Positions 3,281 through 3,525 of a DNA stretch of 64,000 bases are shown piece after piece. The notes below the pieces were generated by a model. That model searched no databases. It saw nothing but the letters and a program-made list of their open reading frames with translations, and was not told the origin of the DNA. The DNA is taken from positions 12,057 through 76,056 of the forward strand of contig JAPPBX010000049.1 of the NCBI GenBank assembly GCA_026702755.1, read 5' to 3'. The first letter of the stretch is position 1, and every line of letters begins with the position of its first letter. The stretch is from Candidatus Poribacteria bacterium. GTDB taxonomy: Bacteria; Poribacteria; WGA-4E; WGA-3G. A program made the position numbers and the translations under genes.

Positions 3281-3525
3281 GGTGCGGTTAGGAAACCGCA
3301 CTACAGGTGTCAATTTAAGGATTTTTCACGGTATTTTGTAGGAACGTCTCTACAAATGCTGCAGAAACACCCAAGCAAAAACCCCCTACGGAGCTTTATC
3401 TTTTTTTAATTCCCATTTCTACACAGATACCATCCCTACGGGATTGAAGAGGTTTTGAAGGCTTCAAAGTCTCTGTGTAAAGCTCGATTCGGTTGGGAAA
3501 CCGAACCTACCGGGCCTGGAGGGCC
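3281..3525. repeat. composite interspersed repeat family 1 (about 240 bp; hairpin modules CGGTTRGGAAACCGMAC, CCCTACGGG, GCCGCCCCTACGGGGC)
   Basis: Homologous copies at 24668..24860 and 10548..10730. Partial copies at 5178..5335, 33545..33630 and 42143..42270. Confidence 0.7.

Follow-up and report, generated by a model that had tools for sequence, protein, structure and literature searches.

Classical bacterial miniature inverted-repeat transposable elements (MITEs), such as the Correia elements, RUP and Nezha, have in common a length of 150-350 bp, inverted repeats, duplication of their target, intergenic location, many copies and modular variants. In the Bacillus cereus group, IS231 of the IS4 family is accompanied by MIC231, non-autonomous cassettes that are bounded by IS4-family inverted repeats and moved in trans, and insertion takes place at a palindromic target rich in G at one end and in C at the other, that of IS231A reportedly being GGG(N)5CCC. 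In a review of the insertion sequences (ISs) of the IS4 family, target duplications of 7-13 bp, or 'one helix turn', are given for all subgroups, and the IS231 subgroup has the end signature CAT-------AA--TAA (PMC2266710). Repetitive extragenic palindromes (REPs) are defined as imperfect palindromes of 20-40 nt with an unpaired GTAG tag at one end (PMC3733652), and they are the targets of ISRm22 (IS4), IS1397/ISKpn1 (IS3) and ISPpu9/ISPpu10/ISPa11/IS621 (IS110), which interrupt the REP at one set position in its interior and yield duplications of 0-6 bp (PMC1525189). Here, we analysed a stretch of 64,000 nucleotides from a Candidatus Poribacteria bacterium (assembly GCA_026702755.1, contig JAPPBX010000049.1, positions 12,057 to 76,056; hereafter the window), in which an earlier note, made from the letters alone, had marked a hairpin-rich composite repeat of about 240 bp at six places. 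The observations presented below make it highly probable that this composite is a MITE of the sponge-symbiont Candidatus Poribacteria, moved by an IS4-type transposase that is encoded elsewhere.

All six places were matched by a profile hidden Markov model (nhmmer, 236 model positions) built from 23 complete small copies in other genomes, and every site lies between open reading frames (ORFs), as had been claimed. Inspection of the sequences, pairwise self-BLAST and a MAFFT alignment agree that the copies near 3281, 10548 and 24668 are collinear. The mean column identity of these three is 69%, the gaps correspond to whole short modules and the longer copies gain a filler of ~21 nt, which bears out the proposed gain and loss of modules. 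The modules themselves are overrepresented in the window, with 3 matches to the core motif AGGTRTCWATTTARGG (0.18 expected), 7 to the CCCTACGGG module (0.5 expected) and 8 to the hairpin-plus-CTACC module (1.3 expected).

A scan with the exact pattern AGGTRTCWATTTARGGN{1,2}TTTTC, employing one genome per species from 185,579 species, matched at least 120 loci (members of this set are designated L002, L013 etc.), so that the family is not a peculiarity of one locus. Among the 120 loci listed, the record titles name 113 as Candidatus Poribacteria, 5 as 'uncultured bacterium', 1 as Vicinamibacterales and 1 as Chitinophagaceae, and 166 nt of the 10548 copy match a Poribacteria metagenome-assembled genome (MAG) at 95%. 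A cyanobacterial origin, initially suggested by a resemblance to SDR or Nezha-like repeats, was dropped in view of this predominance of Poribacteria among the loci listed. The Vicinamibacterales copy (L029, CBDBMW010000013.1), which sits on a 2-Mb contig and is flanked by a REP and by a micro-insert described below, reflects either horizontal transfer or a mislabelled MAG.

These numbers also bear on the simplest objection, that the similarity stems from local duplication or paralogy inside the locus. The window does hold tandem paralogous genes with partly homologous spacers, namely three 871-aa Met-zincin (DUF4953/DUF5117/DUF5118) paralogues at 16438-24564 whose DNA is 73-85% identical. The objection is nevertheless refuted, and we leave it next to no probability, because the scan found the element at no fewer than 120 loci, at unrelated sites and in dozens of Poribacteria assemblies. 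The paralogues themselves argue in the same direction, since the spacer after the first Met-zincin gene (19054-19279) is without the element that follows the third. Its homology with the other spacer stops exactly at the left edge of the copy at 24675, at ...CTTCATCAAACC, and this copy is therefore an insertion relative to the paralogous spacer, in a comparison that resolves the left junction only.

The module that had been called the 'core' is real, with three matches in the window, but it is not a core. Across the matches of the scan, (C)CAT|AGGTGTCAATTTAGGGRTTTTC is nearly invariant in register and is followed by different bodies, either that of the MITE or a transposase gene, which identifies it as the end of an element. 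The partner IS is ~1.47 kb long, was encountered almost exclusively in Candidatus Poribacteria genomes, has the same CATAGGTGTCAATTTAGGG ends as the MITE and contains a single ORF of 442 aa, which matches Pfam DDE_Tnp_1 (PF01609) at 2.4e-24 and the NCBIfam model of IS4-family transposases, NF033592, with E 1e-58 and 199 bits (cutoff 115). Four copies of this IS in OX638352.1 are 99.7-100% identical over ~1.5 kb, with the inverted end CCCTAAATTGACACCTATG. Since the ends are common to the composite and to an IS with an IS4-type transposase, the 'core' represents the terminal inverted repeat of an IS from the IS4 family, and CATAGGTGTCAATTTAGGG fits the IS231 signature with CAT, AA at 11-12 and TA at 15-16. 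Among the 120 loci listed, 41 left-right pairs of ends are spaced 150-350 bp apart and 21 are spaced 1.4-1.75 kb apart, and five identical MITEs of 234 bp occupy unrelated sites in OZ241378.1. The family is short and without a transposase gene, and its ends are shared with an autonomous, transposase-encoding element, as is expected of a MITE. The window itself contains no transposase of this family (best tblastn E 0.66), and its copies are for that reason non-autonomous. The non-autonomous mobile element that the earlier note had offered as one of its readings is in this way substantiated by 19-nt terminal inverted repeats of IS4 type, target-site duplications and dozens of copies across Poribacteria genomes.

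Complete MITEs measure ~234-280 bp, and copies overall range from 180 to 350 bp. They start with CATAGGTGTCAATTTAGGG and end with the inverted CTAAAATTGACACTTATG, and the interior consists of one or two CCCC-TAC-GGGG units, an optional filler of ~21 nt and one GTAG-tagged REP hairpin with a CTACCGGGCCTGG tail. In the canonical plan derived from the 23-copy profile, the left repeat is followed by a hairpin unit ...ATGCCGCCCCTACGGGGCTTAGG, a second unit ...CCCTACGGGAYTSAAGAGG, the stretch ...CCGGTTCGGTTAGGAAACCGAACCTACCGGGCCTGG, a spacer of ~20 nt and the right repeat TTCTAAAATTGACACTTATG, and the filler, CTGCAGAAACACCCAAGCAAAAAC, precedes a hairpin unit in the longer copies. Fifteen terminal pairs are kept in 96% of cells over 26 copies; within the window, paired ends are found only in the copy at 10552-10819. 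The modules had been accurately described, yet their meaning differs from what was assumed, in that the 'end module' is a REP hairpin which serves both as insertion target and as internal cargo.

The left repeat is very often preceded by the hairpin GGTGCGGTT-nnnn-AACCGCACC, which recurs after the right repeat. In OX638352.1, the four near-identical IS copies are each flanked by a hairpin variant of their own, the same on both sides (GCGG; GCAG; GTGG with a 3-nt loop). Because the variants differ between the copies and match across each copy, the flanking hairpin is a duplicated target and not an end of the element. The candidate reading of the hairpin as part of the inverted repeat is ruled out by these variants and by the duplication of targets that are not REPs, where a repeat of 19-20 nt is seen (L005, GTGCAACTTTTCGACCCCC; L023, GGTTTCGCTATCGCTCTACC; L065, GGTAGAACAACGTGAAACC; also L051, L061, L075, L098, L109 and L113). 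When the flanks of 66 elements were paired, a direct repeat on the 20-22-nt diagonal was present in 44, compared to 9.5% of controls with mismatched partners, and no other repeat length was found among them, the distribution being sharply peaked. Defined termini with target-site duplications, which had been named as a check on the family, are in this manner evident. Mismatches between the flanks cluster at the outermost base on each side, and a C invariably adjoins the element on its left and a G on its right. This pattern makes ends of the form CAT...ATG with a 19-20-bp duplication the most economical reading. The REP hairpin is the preferred target of the element, and the duplication of ~20 bp is about twice the length usual for IS4 elements.

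Arrays in which neighbouring elements share hairpins occur in L030, L105 and L004. In L030 (4531-5498), four MITEs (three of 204 bp, one of 297 bp) follow one another in tandem with nothing but the duplicated REP hairpin between them, and either repeated insertion into a copy of the duplication or unequal recombination could have produced this array.

From the observed IS4-type ends, the partner IS, the ~20-bp duplication, the preference for REP hairpins, the identity of the REP, the internal REP and the hairpin-sharing arrays, a course of events may be outlined. The 442-aa transposase, made elsewhere in the genome, would move the MITE in trans by cut-and-paste, with a stagger of ~19-20 bp between the cuts in the two target strands (at most 21-22 under another count of the end bases). 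The target would have the form GGT...ACC, in Poribacteria usually the REP stem-loop GTGCGGTT-nnnn-AACCGCAC, and what is recognised may be either an extruded hairpin or a symmetric GGT...ACC site spanning two turns. The cuts would fall at the base of the stem, and repair of the gaps would leave a full hairpin at either side of the insert. Duplication of the whole hairpin would explain why a hairpin appeared to the earlier note as a 'direct repeat at both ends', and also why head-to-head and tandem arrays share one hairpin. Right ends are missing from the window copies at 3302 and 24675, and one may speculate that the internal REP recombined with the flanking REP ~65 bp away and that the ends were lost in this way.

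The 'end module' reads GTGCGGTT-nnnn-AACCGCAC followed by CTAC(C), and since the opposite strand shows GTAG followed by a palindrome it is a GTAG-tagged REP. There are 4 copies with the tail in the window and 113 in the 0.89 Mb of loci, which were chosen for containing the element. REPs of this kind are associated with their own transposases, the REP-associated tyrosine transposases (RAYTs) of Y1 type, and a search of the loci with an E. coli RAYT query led to L013. Here an ORF at 5579-6070 (minus strand, 163 aa) matches NCBIfam REP_Tyr_transpos at 1.9e-36 (125 bits against a cutoff of 80) and Pfam Y1_Tnp, and it lies between hairpins at ~5498-5540 and 6088-6125 in opposite orientation, which in this one related genome is the arrangement of a REPtron. 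No RAYT gene is present in the window.

It could accordingly be proposed that the composite is a REP mosaic resembling bacterial interspersed mosaic elements (BIMEs), spread by Y1 (RAYT) transposases, and that the IS4-type ends are incidental neighbours. The body does consist largely of REP-type hairpins, solo REPs exist, the GTAG-tagged hairpin flanks the RAYT gene in L013, a second Y1 gene, in L017, lies between inverted copies of the CCCC-TAC-GGGG unit, and two window copies and two fragments are without one or both IS4-type ends. We consider this proposal improbable all the same, since the IS4-type inverted repeats mark the exact boundaries of complete copies in many genomes, with duplications of ~20 bp on either side, and since identical 234-bp copies bounded by such ends are found at unrelated sites. 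The copies in OZ241378.1, listed by eye, are moreover of mixed orientation with no obvious strand or replichore pattern. RAYT/IS200-type single-strand transposition (IS200/IS605 family) is not known to give such ~20-bp duplications. Movement of the whole composite by IS200/IS605 or RAYT enzymes, a candidate prompted by the plus-strand position of all window copies and by the CTAC tag, was rejected in view of the DDE-type ends and the ~20-bp duplications. An element of the IS110/bridge-RNA type was likewise rejected, as there is no DEDD enzyme and the partner is an IS4 enzyme of DDE type.

The surroundings of the two Y1 genes merit separate description. In L013, a Poribacteria MAG, the RAYT gene lies between two inverted right arms of the MITE (5473-6162; model positions 118-236 on minus and 134-236 on plus), each of which ends in the IS4-type inverted repeat, so that a cassette of ~690 bp with the order terminal inverted repeat-REP-RAYT-REP-terminal inverted repeat is formed. 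It is conceivable that the IS4 enzyme can move this RAYT gene as well. The REPs that flank the cassette on the outside differ, there is no clean duplication and an assembly gap is located nearby (6317-6336). In L017 (3664-4455), the second Y1 gene (3867-4343) scores 71.7 bits with the NCBIfam model of IS200/IS605 TnpA and only 30 bits with the RAYT model, and the flanking CCCC-TAC-GGGG unit, the fourth of the modules originally described, may represent a second class of REP with an enzyme of its own.

A further alternative holds that the copies are structured non-coding RNAs, terminators or mRNA-stabilising hairpins, kept for their function and not spread by transposition. With a structure that we specified ourselves (three local hairpins and the pairing of the ends), the three local hairpins pair in 26 aligned copies with 93.8% of cells paired, and changes on both sides of the stem occur in 6 pairs and 23 cells, a level reached by 0 of 500 shuffles. 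Examples are CCCC/GGGG to CCCT/AGGG and, in the REP stem, TT/AA to CG/CG, and slid controls collapse. Copies lie between co-directional genes, and the first hairpin of the consensus has an A-run before it, when the filler is present, and a T-rich stretch after it. Still, Rfam gives no match at the gathering score over the whole window and none at E<=1 for 3200-3620, and RNAalifold yields a weak consensus (-9.8 kcal/mol; covariation term -0.12). The complete window copy, folded as single-stranded DNA, reaches z = -1.75 only. A simple terminator and promoter scan, run over 3000-11500 and hence over the 3281 and 10548 copies alone, flags none of the hairpins of the element. Copies are also found in both orientations relative to their neighbouring genes. 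The palindromes are evidently maintained, since their pairing survives two-sided changes beyond what shuffles achieve, but this demonstrates no RNA function, and upkeep of palindromes is equally expected of DNA hairpins that are recognised by proteins, as REPs are. Of the checks on structure that had been suggested, the Rfam search returned no family and the comparison across copies gave a weak global fold together with local palindromes that pair with compensatory changes. Neither the small-RNA nor the terminator reading of the earlier note finds support in this, and we regard a functional RNA as a very unlikely origin of the family, although individual copies may have been exapted for a role as RNA.

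Returning to the MITE, the window copies, all on the plus strand, can be described one by one. The complete copy occupies 10552-10819 (268 bp; nhmmer positions 1-236, E 3.8e-54) and comprises the left repeat CATAGGTGTCTATTTAGGG, two CCCC-TAC-GGGG-type units, a split internal REP hairpin and the right repeat CTCTAAAATTGACAGTTATG, its right inverted repeat being ctctaaaattgacagttatg. It had been correctly recognised as real and collinear, but its end was wrongly placed at 10730; the element continues to 10819 and includes the right inverted repeat. The left target-site duplication GTGCGTTTATACAGCGTAC (10533-10551) abuts the CAT terminus and the right one, GTGCGTTTACACAGCGTAC (10820-10838), directly follows the ...TTATG terminus, the two being identical at 18 of 19 positions. 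A micro-insert of ~33 nt, ATGCAGGTCGCATTTGGGCGTGTACGCCGCAAAAC, is located in the loop of the internal REP hairpin (10729-10763); it is 97% identical to window 6940-6974, and the same insert occupies this loop position in L039 and L071.

The copy at 3302-3521 has the left repeat TACAGGTGTCAATTTAAGG and a body (match 3304-3521, positions 3-200, E 2.1e-49) with no recognisable right inverted repeat, and it is probably immobile. The REP hairpin GTGCGGTT-AGGA-AACCGCAC immediately to its left (3282-3301) is in the target or duplication position, which is that of the flanking hairpin in 40+ elements of other genomes. A second REP hairpin with a CTACCGGG tail, seen in the sequence and the alignments, lies within or at the truncated right edge (3486-3514) and aligns with the internal hairpin of complete MITEs, and the sequence to the right of the copy, past this hairpin, resembles the flanking-REP tail in L058. 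The two hairpins that had been taken for a direct repeat at both ends of this copy are thus present but not equivalent: the left one is outside the element and the right one belongs to its body. The third collinear copy, at 24675-24856 (match 24676-24856, positions 2-200, E 1e-31), has the left repeat TATAGGTATCAATTTAGGG and is without the first hairpin unit and the right repeat. A variant right end, AATTGGG, common to both truncated copies, was considered and dropped, as only one further instance was found, in a flanking-REP tail.

Among the sites that had been called partial copies, two are internal fragments of the MITE without inverted repeats, at 5178-5285 (two CCCC-TAC-GGGG units; nhmmer 20-125, E 1.9e-17) and at 42115-42229 (two hairpin units; nhmmer 17-132, E 2.7e-19). 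The third, noted at 33545, contains no composite; at 33557-33631 there are two tandem solo REP hairpins with CTACC-type tails and no MITE body, matched separately at 33557-33595 and 33595-33631 by model positions 161-200 only. The neighbours of the copies are ordinary chromosomal genes, encoding tetratricopeptide repeat (TPR)-trypsin-like proteins, GNAT acetyltransferases, Met-zincins and an oxidoreductase, and the window contains no tRNA.

Several points weigh against the MITE interpretation. Two of the three collinear window copies are without a right repeat and are not demonstrable as transposed in their present form. For none of the window copies did the search turn up an empty site or an insertion polymorphism, the metagenome contigs recovered (ERZ27276917 and SRR10996929) being 99.98-100% identical to the window and exact-protein look-ups of the flanking genes returning window-identical contigs or nothing. 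The length of the duplication is 19-20 or 21-22 bp depending on how the terminal C/G is assigned, although the mismatch pattern favours 19-20. Finally, mobilisation in trans and cut-and-paste chemistry are steps that we infer from family membership. On the supporting side, short-read contigs of the same population (SRR10996929) break at 3260, 10966 and 24867, where the three copies have their edges; a high-copy repeat would be expected to behave in this way.

Other small repeats are found beside the MITE. The micro-insert (GCAsGTCGCATTTGGGCGTGTACGCCGCAAA, ~33 nt) has 28 copies in the loci and the window, including ~6940-6976 and 10729-10763, mostly exactly in REP hairpin loops with a few in other small hairpins, and constitutes a third layer of nested repeats. 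A perfect 23-nt tandem duplication (atagaaactaaactttggacaat x2, 5134-5179) abuts the fragment at 5178-5285 upstream of a TPR-trypsin-like gene. The dispersed repeat AACCCCCCATATCCCCCTTATCAGGGGG occurs at 5549, 9847, 31295 and 42073, inside 90-nt copies at 5525 and 9824, and it adjoins MITE or REP copies in other genomes too, e.g. L002. The hairpin family GGCGAGGATACAATCCTCGCC is present at 5417-5462, 10969-11014 and 34720-34765, two of these copies being terminator-like on the minus strand in the simple scan. The hairpin with a CTAC tail GGGGTTGAAAACCCCTCCTACAA, at 7033-7058 (plus) and 53132-53157 (minus), looks like another variant of a GTAG-tagged REP.

The length of the duplication raises the issue of whether it is a trait of the enzyme. 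The closest annotated relatives of the transposase, taken from a plasmid collection, are at most 34% identical to it. Two relatives from the Chloroflexota are 32-34% identical; the one on Herpetosiphon aurantiacus pHAU01 has the ends ATAGGCATCAACCTTA with a perfect 21-nt repeat abutting both, and the one in Ca. Chlorohelix has the ends CATGGTCGTCAATTTAA with a perfect 20-nt repeat, GGGTGCTAAAACCAGTGCCC. A Clostridium tagluense relative (29.5% identical; ends CATAGCCATCAAGCTAAG) shows the classical 10-11 bp at two sites (GGGACTACCC; TGGCGGTACCC). Since the Chloroflexota relatives share the length and the Clostridium relative does not, the ~20-bp stagger is read as a trait of a sub-clade that is independent of REPs. 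The 19-21 bp in Poribacteria and these two relatives lie outside the 7-13 bp of the IS4 family. The Y(2)R(3)E(6)K signature, read by eye in one sequence (...VGIRWQVELMYKCFK...), is represented by R(3)E(6)K with V at the Y position. In the literature searched, with ISfinder outside its reach, we found no description of IS4 elements with 20-bp repeats and no earlier description of Poribacteria MITEs or REPs.

On this basis we tentatively put forward, as a serious possibility but not yet the favoured outcome, a distinct DDE sub-clade of the IS4 family, in Poribacteria and at least two Chloroflexota, that would cut GGT...ACC-type palindromes a fixed ~20 bp apart, at two helical turns in place of one, and that would in Poribacteria be specialised on RAYT-type REP hairpins. 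If so, each insertion would copy a whole REP and REPs would multiply independently of RAYT, the REP carried by the MITE would seed new targets and build nested arrays, and the RAYT gene between two ends in L013 would make the REP enzyme itself a possible passenger of the IS4 enzyme. An otherwise IS231-like transposase with a fixed ~20-bp duplication, next to a Clostridium relative still at 10-11 bp, is also a natural experiment on the spacing of strand-transfer sites.

In practical terms, the MITE family breaks short-read Poribacteria assemblies at each copy and accounts for much of the 'hairpin-rich' intergenic DNA, so that both binning and gene calling of sponge-symbiont metagenomes would benefit if it were masked. 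The REPs, the DDE element that targets and carries them and the 33-nt loop insert are three layers of mobile DNA that feed on each other here. The basic picture of bacterial MITEs is unchanged, and the interest is greater for specialists in transposons than for general readers.

Compared to known systems, the 'end module' resembles the REPs of BIMEs and REPtrons in being a palindrome of ~20 nt with a GTAG tag on one side, extragenic, multi-copy and placed in inverted orientation around a RAYT gene (PMC3733652; see also PMC2817692). Unlike a BIME, the composite has DDE-type inverted repeats and target duplications, and the REP is its target and cargo, not its engine. Like ISRm22 and the other REP-targeting ISs, the element inserts specifically into repetitive extragenic palindromes, but it cuts at the base of the stem, so that the hairpin is left intact and duplicated on both sides. 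The closest parallel is IS231/MIC231, which shares the non-autonomous, trans-moved cassette bounded by IS4-family inverted repeats and the palindromic target with G-rich and C-rich ends, the Bacillus IS231-type transposases being ~30% identical to the Poribacteria enzyme. It differs in that the Poribacteria duplication is 19-21 bp as opposed to 10-12 bp, the usual target is a REP hairpin, the cargo consists of REP-type hairpins and not of genes, and the host belongs to an uncultivated phylum of sponge symbionts. From the classical MITEs (Correia, RUP, Nezha), whose duplications are 2-9 bp, the family is set apart by its ~20 bp, by a hairpin as target and by a body assembled from other repeat families. 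The family is known in kind and new in host and sequence, and its duplication is outside the range recorded for the IS4 family.

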